Below, one piece after another: positions 124 to 61,628 of a DNA stretch of 64,000 nt (positions within the stretch are counted from its first letter, which is position 1; each line of letters starts with the position of its first letter). Made by a program: the position numbers and the translations under genes. The notes beneath the pieces are model-generated. The model searched no databases. It was not told the DNA's origin and saw only the letters and a list, made by a program, of their open reading frames with translations. This DNA is from a virus (Duplodnaviria > Heunggongvirae > Uroviricota > Caudoviricetes): IMG/VR virus record IMGVR_UViG_3300011960_000019. The stretch is one strand, 5' to 3'.

Positions 124-425
124 GCAATTTGACCTCTTTCGACTGGTGGCTGGCAACCTACCTTGTGGCGGCCGGCTTCGGATATGCCTTTTACATTGGT
201 CAGTTAATCGTAAAGCTACTGCTGATCAGATTTGCCAGCCATAAACGCATAGACGACGGTCTGTGGCGCCTGGGTTCTCTGCTGGAGACTCACTACGGCG
301 AACTCAAGGAGAACGAAACTATCACTATTCAAGCGAAGCGTTTTACGGCCATCATCACGAGAACGCCGGAACAGAAGTTGAGTTTGATCAAAAAGATAGC
401 AACTGAACGAGTTACAGATAAATAA
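120..425 (+). CDS. small hypothetical protein with hydrophobic N-terminus (101 aa)
   Basis: ORF track. N-terminal segment WWLATYLVAAGFGYAFYIGQLIV looks like a single TM helix. No recognisable motif. Confidence 0.4.
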   Translation: MSNLTSFDWWLATYLVAAGFGYAFYIGQLIVKLLLIRFASHKRIDDGLWRLGSLLETHYGELKENETITIQAKRFTAIITRTPEQKLSLIKKIATERVTDK

Positions 426-811
426 GTATTTACTTACTTATTTATTATGTATAAGATTCACTTGTTTTCGTTGAGACGCGACTGTTTGAACGTTAAATAT
501 AACTGCAAACGAAGATACGTACCTGGCAGTAGCCTAAGAAGCCAAACACCAGCGAGGTCAGTTTCCAGCCTCGTCACCGAAATGGGACACACTGAGCGAG
601 TGTGATTGCAGAACGCAGGATAGGGCATGTTGCACCACCCATGCCCTATTCGATGAAGTAACAGGATGGGCGGTTGGTTTCCTCATTCCATTCCATCATC
701 CCGGTTTCAGCCAGCTGACCGTCCATCCTGTTACGTCATTTCCATTACTTATGTCGTTTAATCTTGGGTTAAAAGCGGCGACGTAACCCGGCTGGCTTGG
801 TTAGCCAGCGC

Positions 812-926
812 ACAACGTTGAGGTCACTGTTTTTCTTTTAATCATACAGGTGATTCCACAGAGCTGTAGTGACTGATCAATATGTTGGGTCGAACATAAA
901 TCGGTTCAGTGGCCTCAACGTTGTGA
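812..926. repeat. long-range inverted repeat (19-bp arms at 812-830 and 908-926, 18/19 complementary)
   Basis: cacaacgttgaggtcactg ... cagtggcctcaacgttgtg, read directly from the sequence, inside a 1-kb ORF-free region. Confidence 0.5.
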
Positions 927-59800: not shown

Positions 59801-61565
59801 GGCAAATGCCAAACAGATTGAGGCAATGAAATCCTCCGTCGATGACAGCGTTGCCGCCGTCGAAGAGATGAAAAAGACCGTTGCCGAAGTCGAACGCGCC
59901 AGCGCGGAAGTATCGACCAATATCGAGGCTCTGGCCAAAACCAATATTGACCTCGCTCTGCGTCAGGATGAAGACCAGCACAAGCAAATGGTCAATAACG
60001 CGAAGATCGCCACCACTCAGAAGACGTTTGCCGACGATATGTCTGCAATGGCCTCAAAAGTGGAAGAGATCCGCGCAGAAATTGGTGAGGACATCCGGGC
60101 ATCGATTCTGGAAGAGACAACGGCTCGCGTAGAGGCTGATAAGGCGATCGCAACACAAATCACCAAGTTGGAAGCCCAGATCAATGATGATATTTCTGCG
60201 GCCATTGTTTCTGAGCAGGAGGCCAGAGCCACTGCGGATGAATCCCTGTCCAGGCAGATTACGTCACTGCAGGCGAAGGTAGAAGGTGACATTAGTGCGG
60301 CTCTTACCGAAGAGCAGATCGCCCGAGCTTCGGGGGATGAGGCATTATCCAAACAGATTACCAGCCTCAAGGCCCAGACGGGTGAGGATATTAAGGCGGC
60401 AGTTGCCAGTGAAACGAAAGCGCGTACTGACGCAGATAGCGCACTGGCAACTCAGATCAGCACGTTAAAGGCCCAGACTGCGCAGAACATCAAAGCAGCG
60501 GTTGCTACTGAGACTAAAGCTCGTACCGATGCCGATTCGGCGCTGGCCGGGCAGATCGCAAGCCTGAAAGCCCAGACTGGCAAGGATATTAATGCAGCAG
60601 TTACGTCCGAGGCGAACGCCAGGGCAAATGCTGATGGGGCGTTGGGATCACGTATCGATACGCTAAAAGCCTCTGTTGACGGTAACTCTGCAACGATTAA
60701 ACAACAGGCGACAGCTATTGCGGACACCAATAAAAAAGTCTCTACAGCCTGGACGCTTAAGATGGAGACATCGACAAGCGGTGGGCAGAAGTATGTTGCC
60801 GGCATTGCGTTGGGGATCGACAGCACTGGTCTGTCTCAATTCCTTGTTCAAGCCGACCGTTTTGGATTGGTGAACTCAGTGAATGGAAAGGTTACAACGC
60901 CTTTCGTCATTGAAAACGGTGTGGCATATATGAGCGGAGCTTGGATACAAAATGGCACTATCGATAATGCAAAAATAGGGCAGTTCATTCAGTCTAACGA
61001 CTTTCAAAGTGGTGTCAGAGGATGGAATATAAACAAAAATGGCTCTTCTGAATTTCAGAACATCAAAGCCAGAGGGGAGATTATTGCAACAACGGGAAGG
61101 ATGAGTAATGTCGTAATTGATGAGACATGTACTGTTAAAAAGCTATTCGCTGAAAACATCTATGGAGACATTATTACAGCATCATCCAATTTGACCGATA
61201 AGGTTTGGGGAAATACAACTGGCACTAGCTCGGGTACGCGTTACCCAATTGCAACCATACATGGTGCACCTTTCGAAAGAGTTTTTTTATTTTTAGGGAC
61301 AACTGCTGCGCATACCCTTTGGCGACAGAACGTCACAATTAGATGTGATGAGTCGATCGTTTTCCAATATGACACAGGAAACGATGGTTCAAGTGGCGAT
61401 TCTACAAAAAAATGGAATAACTTGTTATTAAGGATACCGGCTTCGTCGTATGGCGCGACCCAAAATCTGACAGTTCAGTTTCCAAACAGGGGCGATAGAG
61501 GATATCTCCAGTTCACCGGAATTCTAATGCTATATAAAATTTCTGGTTCGGTGACAATTCATTAA
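56871..61565 (+). CDS. host specificity / central tail fiber protein J (1564 aa)
   Basis: N-terminal RLPLLIAGAGGKKSSGSS...WDFRDGSQDQTPMSGFDFVETP is the lambda gpJ-family opening. The C-terminal third contains about ten tandem ~30-aa coiled-coil repeats (AxTDADSALAxQIxSLKAQTGxDIKAAV). Confidence 0.85.
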   Translation: MNMEQFKKKRLPLLIAGAGGKKSSGSSRTPVEADDTVNSRAMASILDLLGEGVIGGLVDGAKSIFVDDLPILNEDGSPNFSGITWDFRDGSQDQTPMSGFDFVETPKSVNIQLKRMHDVTIAIDNDEADRVRVILKFPSLRSIDKKTGDTNGTTVKYKFQIANGDNAFKDAIAEGESTSEITLTAKKTGVYYRSYELKLPKPGRAYKVRVLRLTDDSNTQYIFNDTWVDSVGEIVDTPMNYPNSALVGLKVNSEQFGSSMPSRSYLVRGLKIRIPSNYDEHTNTYIGVWDGTFKLLSSSNPAWILFDLLTNARYGLGQYVSESMIDLGQIYQIGRYCDEEIDDGFGGKEKRFAINTQITSRQDAYRLIQDIAGAFRGMVFWAGGMVNVMQDSPSDPVMMFTNANVKDGMFSYKGSARKDRPSVALVTYNNKEDGYKQNIEYVEDQEAMRRYGERKTEVVAFGCTSRGQAHRVGLWLLYTARMESDVISFTAGLDASFLMPGETVLIQNKYRAGKRNSGRIVAFTKNSITLDAPVTLNKAGSYIRILNQEGEIVERDILETGEDITKVTFSKALNSGDMPVMNGVWTITEPDLEPMRVRVINVAQGEAQGTFDVTVVQNNASKYEAIDNGATLIPENNTVLDPTYSKPTNLQVTEGTYISSPGNLSIKLVATWEGKSAEYWISWRRSDENNVSNWQSARVTEEQFEILNIAENGQYDIQLYAVSFSGKKTDIISTVYQVKGTMTPPGSPTSLTAVGDYRNVILNWVNPDSIDLDHINVYASQTNDLETAKLIAEAASTTFTHAGLGDSETWYYWVRAVNKRGMLSPPNSNLGTEAMTRDVLSFLTGKITSSELGQELLEEIDSKASQDAVDAINKQMEESLKELDQSVTDLDSKLEDTSGRLEQAQNDLKNEVSGTLDKVNDALQQVEDSNAALVELQEAVSEQGKAVAGAVEAAHAALDNASALIAEEREARVEGDKANAKQIEAMKSSVDDSVAAVEEMKKTVAEVERASAEVSTNIEALAKTNIDLALRQDEDQHKQMVNNAKIATTQKTFADDMSAMASKVEEIRAEIGEDIRASILEETTARVEADKAIATQITKLEAQINDDISAAIVSEQEARATADESLSRQITSLQAKVEGDISAALTEEQIARASGDEALSKQITSLKAQTGEDIKAAVASETKARTDADSALATQISTLKAQTAQNIKAAVATETKARTDADSALAGQIASLKAQTGKDINAAVTSEANARANADGALGSRIDTLKASVDGNSATIKQQATAIADTNKKVSTAWTLKMETSTSGGQKYVAGIALGIDSTGLSQFLVQADRFGLVNSVNGKVTTPFVIENGVAYMSGAWIQNGTIDNAKIGQFIQSNDFQSGVRGWNINKNGSSEFQNIKARGEIIATTGRMSNVVIDETCTVKKLFAENIYGDIITASSNLTDKVWGNTTGTSSGTRYPIATIHGAPFERVFLFLGTTAAHTLWRQNVTIRCDESIVFQYDTGNDGSSGDSTKKWNNLLLRIPASSYGATQNLTVQFPNRGDRGYLQFTGILMLYKISGSVTIH

Positions 61566-61628
61566 TTACAATGGTAGGTATGTACTTACTTATGTGGGCG
61601 GGAATGCCCGCACTTTCAAGGAGCGAAT

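Follow-up and report, generated by a model that had tools for sequence, protein, structure and literature searches.

In P1, a phage-plasmid like the element described here, one repressor (C1) acts at many operators spread over about 100 kb before separate operons, and the set includes the repressor's own gene and the antirepressor operon, as the set described here appears to. Each P1 operator is an asymmetric 17-mer (ATTGCTCTAATAAATTT); C1 itself, 283 aa long, belongs to a type other than XRE, and late gene expression in P1 requires the activator Lpa, not C1. The sites found in this study differ in being symmetric 18-bp palindromes that also lie within the virion operon. The original prediction had likened their logic to that of P1 C1; the likeness holds for function, whereas protein and site type are unrelated to C1. 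Homology with the C1 family was rejected on the symmetry of the 18-bp sites and on the XRE fold of the candidate binder.

The stoperators of cluster A mycobacteriophages (L5 gp71 and Bxb1 gp69) also amount to about 25-30 copies of a single short site, lie in short intergenic gaps across early and late operons, and belong to immunity groups that differ, as may be the case here, by small changes of site and repressor. Stoperators are asymmetric 13-mers; each is bound by a monomer and works in one orientation, by blocking elongation. The sites in the present element are palindromes, most of which overlap promoter-like hexamers, and the hosts of the two systems are unrelated. Lambdoid and 434-type CI/Cro repressors and the C proteins of restriction-modification systems use dimer-type palindromic operators of 14-18 bp and are autoregulated, both of which are proposed here, and the modelled N-terminal fold of the candidate repressor matches theirs (best with C.BclI, C.AhdI, 434 Cro, Stl and SinR). 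In lambdoid phages the operators cluster within a single immunity region, usually in groups of three, whereas in this element the immunity region has one full site and the rest are dispersed. Palindromes dispersed over a plasmid, some at promoters and some far from them, coordinate many operons through KorB/KorA of RK2 (IncP) and SopB of N15. KorB and N15 SopB belong to the ParB family and bind sites that also serve as centromeres, whereas here an XRE protein is favoured as the binder and the partition locus of the relatives is free of sites.

We found no description in the literature of dispersed-operator control for the widespread SSU5-type plasmid family. From the comparisons below, the palindromes of this element are probably a genome-wide operator set for an XRE repressor (encoded at 8040-8426) that would keep the prophage silent.

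The palindrome family and its placement

The window (the whole stretch of 64,000 nucleotides that was analysed) is an SSU5/pHCM2-type phage-plasmid with 99.6-99.9% identity to Enterobacter pMS-37c and four deletions private to the window relative to pMS-37c. At least 82% of it is coding, the recombination-gene operon is truncated by a deletion, and the AAA-ATPase and DnaE genes are fused. Sixteen loci, defined by a score of at least 14 with a symmetrised 18-bp matrix, were detected in the window, compared to 0.3 in block shuffles. Matches to TAAGTANTTACTTA with up to two mismatches numbered 34 against 0.53 in dinucleotide shuffles, and matches to TARGTANNTACYTA with up to one mismatch numbered 19 against 0.03 expected, so the enrichment over a shuffled background that the original prediction depended on was borne out. 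The sites, with window coordinates, matrix scores and no strand assigned to the palindromes, are as follows.

419..436: site TAAATAAGTATTTACTTA, score 24.0, alternative register 423-440; shares bases with the ORF 120-425 stop codon and precedes tRNA-Asn (1174-1248) and the accessory island; conserved in SSU5 (41774), pMS-37c and Cyrano (38253)
3950..3967: site TAAGTAA-TTAC-TTACCTA, score 26.1; about 49 bp upstream of phoH, in an operon where phoH is followed by gp49-like, glutaredoxin and YafO toxin genes; the Serratia orthologue is also upstream of phoH
8456..8473: xre-promoter site CTGGTAA-GTGC-TTACTGA, score 16.0
9913..9930: site TAGATAAGGACTTACCTA, score 21.9; within CobT-like ORF 8943-11384, with no good promoter-like context found around it; conserved in SSU5 (43666) and pMS-37c
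11403..11420: site TAAGTAA-TCAC-TTACTAT; 61 bp upstream of the AAA-ATPase/DnaE genes; arms unvarying in 25 distinct relatives, with only two centre bases changing; Cronobacter orthologue TAAGTAG-GCAA-CTACTTA
17831..17848: site TAAGTAA-GTAC-TGATCTA, score 22.3; in the divergent gap between a DUF4365 gene (16335-17804, minus strand) and the recombination-gene operon; conserved in SSU5 (52176), pMS-37c and Cyrano (52660)
19244..19261: site TAAATAA-GTAC-TTACCAA, score 23.7; 15 bp upstream of the ATG at 19276, with promoter-like TTGTGC-16-TAATAT directly upstream of the site
19572..19589: site TAAGTTA-GTAT-CTACCTA, score 19.5; 3 bp upstream of the ATG at 19592, overlapping the -10 of TTTACA-17-TAGTAT; conserved in SSU5, Cyrano and Cronobacter
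24536..24553: site TAGGTAT-TCAC-TTACTTA, score 21.0; 117 bp upstream of the sbcD-like gene (24670), also preceding the sbcC-like operon, overlapping the -35 of TTCACT-16-(TG)CATAAT; Cronobacter orthologue TAGGTAG-TTAG-CTACTTA
30364..30381: site TAGGTAA-GCAT-TTACCTA, score 24.1; 14 bp upstream of dam (adenine methyltransferase, 30395); Cronobacter orthologue TAGGTAG-CTAA-CTACCTA
31422..31439: site TCGGTAA-GTAC-TTACCAT, score 19.3, including the perfect 14-mer GGTAAGTACTTACC; directly 3' of ORF 31191-31421, with promoter-like TTTAAA-17-TAAAAT beginning at its 3' edge
34612..34629: site TAGGTAA-GTAT-TTACCTA, score 26.6, the window maximum; centre of a 32-bp palindrome (34605-34636), 132 bp upstream of ORFs 34761-35255 and 35265-35453
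44727..44744: site ATTGTAA-GTAC-TTACCTA, score 20.4; 41 bp upstream of the ORF at 44785, after a terminator-like hairpin and between TTGTAA and TAATAT (17 bp apart); Cronobacter orthologue TAAGTAG-GTAG-CTACCTA
51050..51067: site TAAGTAA-GTAC-TTATACA, score 19.3; in a divergent gap of 82 bp flanked by the helicase operon (minus strand, including an FljA-like gene) and two ParB_N genes (plus strand), beside a separate small palindrome, ACAATTGATTGT; conserved in SSU5, pMS-37c, Cyrano (105108) and Cronobacter (79198)
54717..54734: site TAAGTAA-GCAC-TTATTTA, score 23.8; flanked by the M-like tail gene (54367-54702) and tail gene L (54759), within the TAGATA-17-TATCAT spacer; conserved in SSU5 (15590) and Cyrano (15530)
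61575..61592: site TAGGTAT-GTAC-TTACTTA, score 26.1; between the J-like tail gene (end 61565) and the tail-fibre gene (61629); conserved in SSU5 (21938), Cyrano (22449) and Cronobacter (104755)

All 16 sites fit a single fixed 18-bp palindrome, TARGTAA-GTAC-TTACYTA, in a constant register of 7-bp arm, 4 bp and 7-bp arm with a centre that is mostly GTAC; the proposed operator consensus, an 18-bp palindrome, is TARGTAAGTACTTACYTA. The 14 palindrome loci listed originally all contain the motif, and the copies at 9913-9930 and 19572-19589 are additional. Two of the listed positions were loose, 51057-51075 being the site at 51050-51067 and 17825-17847 being a longer palindrome with GATC flanks, within which lies the site at 17831-17848. 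The spacer of 0-4 nt described originally is an artefact, as every site fits the fixed register and, the centre usually being GTAC, some copies mimic a spacer-less 14-mer. Positions G4, T5, A6, A10, T13 and A14 were each retained in 22-25 of 25 sites.

Fifteen of the loci lie outside ORFs, the copy at 9913-9930 being the only intragenic one in the window. Almost every copy was first described as lying 30-130 bp upstream of an operon start; measured from the edge of the site, the following start codon is 3-132 bp away, and the 419-436 site is an exception at 738 bp before tRNA-Asn. Many copies of a single site, far above chance, noncoding and genome-wide, are what is expected of a dispersed-operator regulon, and this is the pattern seen here. 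A point against is that no promoter is evident at some copies, which immediately precede terminators or fall in gaps of 30 bp between genes.

A nucleic-acid hairpin (acting between cistrons in RNA processing, stability or as a translational operator) or a DNA cruciform could also generate a palindrome family. Many copies lie in short gaps, as near as 3-15 bp upstream of ribosome-binding sites, and the lineage switch described below alters both arms symmetrically. An RNA operator for the FljA-like protein (48149-48712), which matches Pfam PF03614, would be one example; fliC mRNA is the reported target of FljA homologues. However, pairing is often broken while the consensus is kept: pairs 3-16 and 7-12 are complementary in just 12 and 14 of 25 sites, A-C mismatches occur, and position 3 (A/G) is independent of position 16 (T/C; Fisher p=1). 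A structured RNA or hairpin element was rejected on this lack of compensatory pairing, and the independent variation of the half-sites points to a protein site on duplex DNA. The stems would also be weak and AT-rich, the start-codon distance spans the whole 3-132 bp, the 51050 copy lies in a divergent, probably untranscribed promoter gap, and the 8456 copy covers a promoter start. The hairpin explanation is very unlikely.

The sites are associated with promoter-like sequences. Overlap with the best -35/-10 pair nearby was seen at 20 of the 25 sites, and site centres lie between about -45 and +5 relative to the predicted start, although promoter calls are permissive in AT-rich DNA and the site itself supplies promoter-like hexamers. 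Sigma-70-like sites showed no overall enrichment in the window. The right arm, TTACYTA, resembles a -35 hexamer, and the last TA of the site often starts a TAnnnT hexamer, e.g., TATCAT, as would be seen if the motif were a promoter element for an element-specific sigma factor or appropriator. Against this, both the distance and the orientation of the palindrome with respect to -10 hexamers vary, and no sigma or RNA polymerase gene is annotated in the relatives. Together with its host-factor version (see below), this explanation is very unlikely.

The xre gene and its predicted promoter

Two features define the putative repressor locus.

8040..8426, minus strand: xre, 128-aa XRE/Cro-C1-type helix-turn-helix protein, proposed cognate repressor
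8473..8500, minus strand: predicted sigma-70-type xre promoter from a consensus scan, TTTACA (8500-8495), 16-bp spacer, TAATAT (8478-8473)

The xre gene is convergent with a tyrosine recombinase gene (6942-8048), with a 9-bp overlap. Its product matched PHROG phrog_8, 'transcriptional regulator' (E=1.3e-11), and Pfam HTH_31 (E=0.003), the latter at 18.2 bits, below the cut-off of 27; no match to PDB sequences was found at E up to 1. NCBI names its homologues 'XRE family transcriptional regulator'. The AlphaFold2 model (mean pLDDT 75; 85-90 across residues 11-80) contains a five-helix N-terminal domain that includes helix 2, a turn and helix 3 (helices 12-23, 28-35, 41-47, 55-64 and 69-80), and the top Foldseek matches were all XRE helix-turn-helix proteins with weak E-values (0.01 or higher), among them C.AhdI (target TM 0.77-0.81, rmsd 1.6-1.7 A) and 434 Cro (rmsd 1.9 A). 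The predicted structure shows that the 8040-8426 protein has the XRE/Cro fold. The protein is without an S24 peptidase domain, so RecA-mediated self-cleavage is not expected.

Homologues of XRE were present in 69 searched sequences and, where the region was present, about 3 kb upstream of the AAA-ATPase/DnaE genes; by this distribution xre is evidently a core gene. XRE diverges faster than its neighbours, with identities of 66%/48% compared to 86%/60% for Int and about 94%/79% for DnaE.

Both hexamers of the xre promoter are conserved across lineages. The 8456-8473 site runs from the final base of the -10 hexamer over the expected transcription start, and GGTAAGyACTTACC at this promoter was conserved in all checked lineages whose XRE is 59-100% identical, in agreement with the autoregulatory copy that had been proposed at the XRE gene. 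The rightward promoter adjoining xre has a half-site at most. In a scan of 46 ORFs, no other helix-turn-helix regulator was recognised.

Conservation in relatives and a concerted switch in one lineage

Conservation at orthologous positions, which the original prediction had named as a test, was found in SSU5, pMS-37c, Cyrano, and Klebsiella and Cronobacter relatives. The full-length relatives SSU5, pMS-37c and Cyrano contain 24-25 loci each, with copies also within the virion operon. In Photorhabdus, TAAGTAA-N4-TTACTTA is kept, with two copies beside xre. SSU5 retains 24 good sites though it is without xre and int, a pattern that would fit a recent lytic deletion derivative.

Cronobacter JZ38 represents a divergent lineage, in which the 18-mer site was found at 16 of 18 mapped orthologous places. 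Twelve of its sites better fit the variant TAGGTAG-YTAR-CTACCTA; four still better fit the window pattern, three of these with C on the inner right arm. The inner arm bases changed from A to G (p=0.001) and from T to C (p=7e-6), symmetrically in both arms. This concerted change points to a factor encoded by the element. A host transcription factor had some appeal in that the motif loosely resembles the RcsAB box (TAAGAATATTCCTA), but the motif switches in concert between element lineages of closely related hosts, and Cronobacter sakazakii records include XRE proteins of the window type.

Segment N41-K50 of XRE (the recognition helix, helix 3, N41-K47, followed by S48-G49-K50) appears to co-vary with the operator. 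It reads NNLSLIKSGK in window-motif lineages at 59-100% identity, except in two Klebsiella-group variants that differ at N42, S48 or K50, and NNLSMIKSGK in Photorhabdus. In the variant Cronobacter lineage it reads NNLSNIKTGR (L45N, S48T and K50R). The co-variation rests on one switch, a single evolutionary event, and since every other protein also differs in that lineage, another regulator could co-vary equally well.

Another protein of the element, either a lytic-phase activator or a ParB_N protein, may be the binder at real protein sites, but this is unlikely. SSU5 keeps all sites without xre, and in the variant lineage no clean variant-type site was found at the xre promoter, which has just a conserved hybrid (TAAGTAA-GTCA-CTAACTA) that precedes the ATG by 121 bp. 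On the other hand, the site over the xre start point fits autoregulation, and the 46-ORF scan offered no second helix-turn-helix candidate. An activator would recruit RNA polymerase to weak promoters and also turn xre off; the sites precede genes of both the early and the late phase, and there are few good sigma-70 promoters. The variable position of the sites relative to the -10, from -45 to +5, suits occlusion over fixed-position activation. One of the two ParB_N proteins (51086-52434) would be a KorB-like global regulator or would bind dispersed centromere-type sites as N15 SopB does. Dispersed palindromes on plasmids are known for KorB and N15 SopB, and a site lies directly upstream of the ParB_N genes. 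However, Pfam shows only the N-terminal domain in the ParB_N proteins, and the true partition locus (parA) of the relatives has no nearby site.

Proposed control of the lytic functions

Indirect support for repression of site-linked genes in the lysogen comes from Cyrano. No site was found in the Cyrano promoter gaps of kacAT/parA, CYRAN_43, hicAB, repA and a minD-like gene. Of six maintenance or moron units without a site, four have members in the list of lysogen-expressed genes (PMC9928086 Table 1), which includes all those site-free genes except parA and repA (PMC9928086). The Cyrano XRE homologue, CYRAN_45, is annotated as a putative repressor and its expression in the lysogen was 10-fold over background (PMC9928086). 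Counter-cases are CYRAN_109, CYRAN_117 and perhaps the tRNA region, which are lysogen-expressed yet downstream of a site. Enrichment, conservation, co-variation and the site-free maintenance gaps all support the dispersed operator set for one repressor that was originally proposed.

We infer that XRE is the binder, that it represses by binding, and that the predicted promoters are real. A dimer of an element-encoded regulator, the likeliest being the 128-aa XRE protein, would bind the 18-bp palindromes on duplex DNA. In the plasmid-prophage state, XRE would occupy sites that overlap weak sigma-70-type promoters and shut off nearly every lytic unit, including replication/recombination, nucleotide metabolism, dam, lysis, head and tail functions. 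The operon preceding ant in SSU5 would also be shut off; in SSU5, homologues of ORFs 34761-35255 and 35265-35453 are followed by a 190-bp gap and a gene annotated as anti-repressor Ant (SSU5_091, 092 and 093). Promoters inside the virion operon of the full-length relatives would be covered too. The copy over the xre start point would lead the repressor to limit its own synthesis, while those promoters of plasmid replication, partition, toxin-antitoxin and moron genes that were examined, all free of sites, would stay on.

A more elaborate reading is possible but doubtful. It holds that XRE gates every lytic unit, including half a dozen internal sigma-70 head-tail promoters (one in the portal ORF), with single-tier release without a late activator; that heteroimmune lineages retuned at least 12 operators in concert with two or three residue changes in and just after the recognition helix; and that induction proceeds via a LexA-controlled Cre-like recombinase gene whose transcript runs antisense into xre.

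The operator set appears to work like that of P1 C1 or the L5 stoperators and to be homologous to neither. Dispersed-operator repressor control is a known kind of regulation, as in phage P1, and this element is probably a further case.

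Form and enrichment of the dispersed palindrome

The palindrome scattered over the window is strongly enriched over a shuffled background. The sequence TAAGTANTTACTTA occurs 34 times with up to two mismatches (0.53 in shuffles), TARGTANNTACYTA matches 19 times with up to one mismatch (0.03 in shuffles), and an 18-bp matrix at a score of at least 14 finds 16 loci where 0.3 are expected. All 14 loci of the original prediction contain the motif, and two more were detected, at 9913-9930 (within a CobT-like ORF) and 19572-19589. Coding sequence makes up at least 82% of the window, yet 15 of the 16 loci lie outside ORFs.

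The count matrix was built on 25 non-redundant sites from the window and pMS-37c, a full-length relative, and its consensus is TARGTAA-GTAC-TTACYTA, with T5 and A14 invariant. A spacer varying between 0 and 4 nt had been ascribed to the palindrome, but this variation disappeared once every copy was placed in a single register of a 7-bp arm, four central base pairs and a second 7-bp arm. A GTAC centre was found in nine of the 25 sites, though sites were chosen without regard to the centre, and a copy with this centre reads as the "spacer-less" GGTAAGTACTTACC. Models of overlapping copies with a 4-bp offset, the 14-mer TARGTA-NN-TACYTA and the 12-mer GTAAGTACTTAC, were rejected because a single 18-bp register gives a better fit at every site and accounts for the variable-base positions in a 25-sequence alignment; at the site upstream of the AAA-ATPase gene, aligned from 25 distinct relatives, two of the four central bases vary and nothing else does. 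At 17825-17847, the operator-like site sits inside a 23-bp palindrome flanked by two GATC (Dam) sites, AGATCGTAAGTAAGTACTGATCT, and the element itself encodes an adenine methyltransferase (30395-30988).

A literature search by sequence string and topic returned no account of the motif or of SSU5-type lysogeny control. A scan of IMG/VR for exact consensus matches gave 75 stretches, 46 of them SSU5-like; the rest had mostly single matches, probably due to chance, and an unrelated group among them had long (TAAG)n/(CTTA)n palindromes. Long palindromes of the same 4-nt units, such as AAAGTAAGTAAGTACTTACTTACTTT and GTAAGTAAGTAGTTATATAACTACTTACTTAC, were seen in viral contigs L097, L142, L157, L165 and L168 (GC about 0.41), which are unrelated to SSU5.

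Positions 3 (A/G) and 16 (T/C) of the motif vary independently (6, 5, 5 and 6 sites per class; Fisher p=1), and complementary bases are present at positions 3 and 16 in 12 of the 25 sites and at positions 7 and 12 in 14. Since these pairs are often non-complementary and the arms are independent, the copies preserve the consensus and not the pairing, a pattern characteristic of duplex DNA bound by a symmetric protein dimer. With its arms varying in this way, the palindrome is highly improbable as a functional hairpin. The FljA-like protein, whose sequence by eye resembles two Sm-like repeats, was set aside as a DNA binder and confined to the hairpin alternative. Its gene (48149-48712, minus strand) is a core gene in the helicase operon and matches PF03614, "repressor of phase-1 flagellin" (E=6e-97), and phrog_1444; the protein might act in lysogenic conversion by repressing host flagellin.

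The window shows no excess of canonical sigma-70 sites: counts of 14, 15 and 14 compare with expected values of 24, 18 and 17. Twenty of the 25 operator-like sites overlap the best local -35/-10 pair, which is soft evidence because the site is AT-rich and itself supplies hexamer-like sequence. Site centres fall at about +3 (the start), about -10 (on the -10 hexamer), about -17 to -25 (the spacer) and about -34 (on the -35 hexamer). A fixed promoter architecture was rejected because the site-to-hexamer distances are heterogeneous; the spread suits occlusion by a repressor and is at odds with an activator site or a fixed promoter element.

Distribution among relatives and a lineage switch

The window represents an SSU5/pHCM2-type phage-plasmid with 99.6-99.9% identity to the Enterobacter hormaechei plasmid pMS-37c (NZ_CP053193) and about 96% identity to Salmonella phage SSU5. 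Compared with both, it has four clean deletions.

Deletions in the window relative to SSU5 and pMS-37c
Junction near 12692: 551 bp; fuses the AAA-ATPase and DnaE genes
Junction near 17906: 4.1 kb; ssb, exonuclease and recombinase genes lost
Junction near 29065: 8.4 kb; nrdAB-thyX-folA genes lost
Junction near 53239: 15.4 kb; terminase through most of the tape measure lost

The "polymerase fusion" named in the original prediction is the AAA-ATPase/DnaE fusion produced by the first deletion, and ORF 53213-54325 is the C-terminal remnant of the tape measure. The 53239 junction was absent as contiguous sequence from all 481 related PLSDB plasmids; either the element is a defective derivative or the window is spliced.

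SSU5, pMS-37c and the E. coli phage Cyrano have 24-25 loci each at matching relative places, so the copies are conserved at orthologous positions. In these full-length genomes, copies are also present inside the virion operon.

Sites in the virion operon of full-length relatives
Terminase-portal gap (33 bp)
3' end of the portal ORF, in the spacer of TTGAAA-17-TATGAT
3' of the major capsid gene
Upstream of the major tail gene
Gap between tail genes M and L
Upstream of the tail-fibre gene

Genes with a site upstream in the window include phoH, AAA-ATPase/DnaE, the recombination genes, sbcCD, dam, tail gene L and the tail-fibre gene, and a site also lies upstream of the divergent helicase and ParB_N operons. 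The best site precedes the ORF pair at 34761-35453, within a 32-bp palindrome; the SSU5 homologues of this pair are followed by a 190-bp gap and then ant. Cyrano has an additional site upstream of its holin gene. No site was detected in the Cyrano promoter gaps of kacAT/parA, CYRAN_43, hicAB, repA and a minD-like gene, and the matrix scan found none in the window gap upstream of repA (20884-21948). All of these site-free Cyrano genes but parA and repA are in the list of genes expressed in the lysogen, with CYRAN_43 at 723-fold over background (PMC9928086). CYRAN_109 and CYRAN_117 are expressed despite a site upstream; they are possible exceptions, or may have internal promoters.

The plasmid of Cronobacter sp. 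JZ38 (NZ_CP017663) represents a divergent lineage, with 79% identity in DnaE. The 18-mer site is present at 16 of 18 mapped orthologous places, and 12 of these 16 sites are closer to TAGGTAG-YTAR-CTACCTA than to the window pattern; the other four are still closer to the latter, three of them with C on the inner right arm. At the innermost arm position A gave way to G (p=0.001), and at its partner T gave way to C (p=7e-6). When each genome was scanned for both types with up to one mismatch, pMS-37c had 13 loci of its own type and four of the other, and the Cronobacter plasmid had 19 of its own and three of the pMS-37c type. For a dozen or more dispersed sites to switch, a sequence-specific, trans-acting, element-borne factor is needed; neither a host factor nor a structural DNA property fits the concerted change. 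It is very unlikely that the motif is a host-factor site, given this switch, or a promoter element, given the spread of site positions. The repeats are very probably operators of some element-encoded regulator. In the Serratia lineage, the sites in 20 kb were too few for its variant to be defined.

The XRE protein and its gene neighbourhood

Features of the region around the xre gene
6805-6837: lox/FRT-like inverted repeat
6896-6914: LexA box
6942-8048: tyrosine recombinase gene (int, "integrase")
8040-8426, minus strand: xre, encoding a 128-aa helix-turn-helix protein
8456-8473: operator-like site at the xre promoter
8540-8690: gap between xre and the next ORF
8690-8902: conserved ORF of 70 aa

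XRE is the only classical DNA-binding regulator recognised among 46 ORFs scanned. It matches phrog_8 at 1e-11 and Pfam HTH_31 below threshold, and in its AlphaFold model (pLDDT 75) the N-terminal domain has five helices, with XRE-type proteins as all of its best structural matches (C.BclI, C.AhdI, 434 Cro, Stl and SinR). Among the sequences searched, 69 have an xre homologue, Cyrano being one of them; in those that cover the region, the gene lies about 3 kb upstream of the AAA-ATPase gene. The Cyrano homologue, CYRAN_45, is annotated as a putative repressor; it served as the lysogeny-repressor reference and was expressed in the lysogen 10-fold above background (PMC9928086).

Identities to the Cyrano and Cronobacter lineages are 66% and 48% for XRE, 86% and 60% for Int, and about 94% and 79% for DnaE; XRE diverges faster than its neighbours. 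Residues N41-K50 (helix 3, N41-K47, followed by S48-G49-K50) read NNLSLIKSGK and are kept in lineages with the window-type motif; two Klebsiella-group variants have changes at N42, S48 or K50. The segment is NNLSNIKTGR in the variant Cronobacter lineage. A Photorhabdus relative with NNLSMIKSGK retains TAAGTAA-N4-TTACTTA, with two copies adjoining its xre.

The xre promoter consists of TTTACA (8500-8495) and TAATAT (8478-8473) separated by 16 bp on the minus strand, and the site follows directly. Every lineage checked whose XRE shares 59-100% identity keeps both hexamers and GGTAAGyACTTACC. This is the layout expected for negative autoregulation, as had been proposed for the copy at the repressor gene.

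We lean towards a genome-wide operator set for XRE, a reading drawn from sequence patterns: bound to the dispersed operators, XRE would silence lytic units, and at its own promoter it would limit its own synthesis. Binding by another element protein (a lytic-phase activator, or a ParB_N protein in a KorB-like role) is unlikely but deserves more weight than a hairpin or host factor. Two observations count in its favour and against XRE. SSU5 retains 24 operator-like sites although it has no xre, and no clean variant-type site is present at the xre promoter of the variant lineage, where there is only a conserved hybrid 121 bp upstream. The case for XRE is further weakened in that a single co-variation event was seen. 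The spread of site centres speaks against an activator, and no helix-turn-helix was detected in the ParB_N proteins. Comparison of SSU5 (NC_018843, 42639-42665) with window positions 1289-8914 showed that SSU5 lacks a 7.6-kb block containing AbiH, the phoH operon, a YafO toxin, the recombinase, xre and the divergent 70-aa ORF. That xre is an accessory gene, and hence not the binder, was ruled out by the presence of xre and int in the 69 searched sequences, which make SSU5 the exception. SSU5 may be a repressor-less, obligately lytic deletion derivative of a phage-plasmid that retained its operators.

The gap beside xre contains a conserved predicted extended -10 promoter, TGATACAAT, followed by a TAGGTAG half-site and preceded by a conserved TATCTGATATAG element. 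The ORF driven by this promoter (phrog_2627, no known domain) is in the Cro position.

The inverted repeat just 5' of the recombinase gene, AATGATTCCATAC-CTATTAA-GTATGGAATCATT, is kept in all lineages, with a compensating change in both arms in Photorhabdus (GTGACTCCAGAC...GTCTGGAGTCAC). It is probably the target of the recombinase, which would then be Cre-like (multimer resolution or cyclisation) and not a chromosomal integrase. The recombinase promoter (TTGATC-17-TAATAT) lies just upstream of the LexA box, TACTGTTTATAAATACAGT, which overlaps its -10 end 45 bp before the ATG and is the sole CTGT-N8-ACAG in the window; LexA was rejected as the binder of the palindrome because this box is not at the motif. 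The Enterobacter, Salmonella, E. coli (Cyrano), Klebsiella and Serratia lineages keep the box; Photorhabdus and the Cronobacter JZ38 group lack it. Because the recombinase gene and xre converge, with a 9-bp overlap, SOS-induced transcripts that read through the recombinase gene would be antisense to xre, and induction could take this route.

Relation to known operator systems

A dispersed operator set for one repressor, with an autoregulatory copy, is supported once the variable spacer is dropped. The comparison with P1 C1 holds for how the system would work, as it does for the stoperators of cluster A mycobacteriophages; it does not extend to family membership, since both the symmetric 18-bp sites and the XRE/Cro fold of the candidate binder set this system apart. 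Lambdoid CI operators are clustered, whereas those described here are dispersed. The principle was already established; a palindromic, XRE-based case would join the few genome-wide operator systems.

Phage-plasmids of the SSU5/pHCM2 type are very common across Enterobacterales (878 PLSDB plasmids match the first 9 kb of the window alone), and resistance genes, CTX-M-15 for example, are known from some of them (PMC3999498). For this widespread and clinically relevant family the regulon is now testable: the operator consensus and candidate repressor offer a direct route to mapping the lytic regulon and a starting point for building derivatives that are inducible or non-inducible. Reading the XRE helix together with the operator variant would allow immunity groups to be predicted from sequence, and the lack of the repressor gene would explain why SSU5 may behave as a lytic phage.
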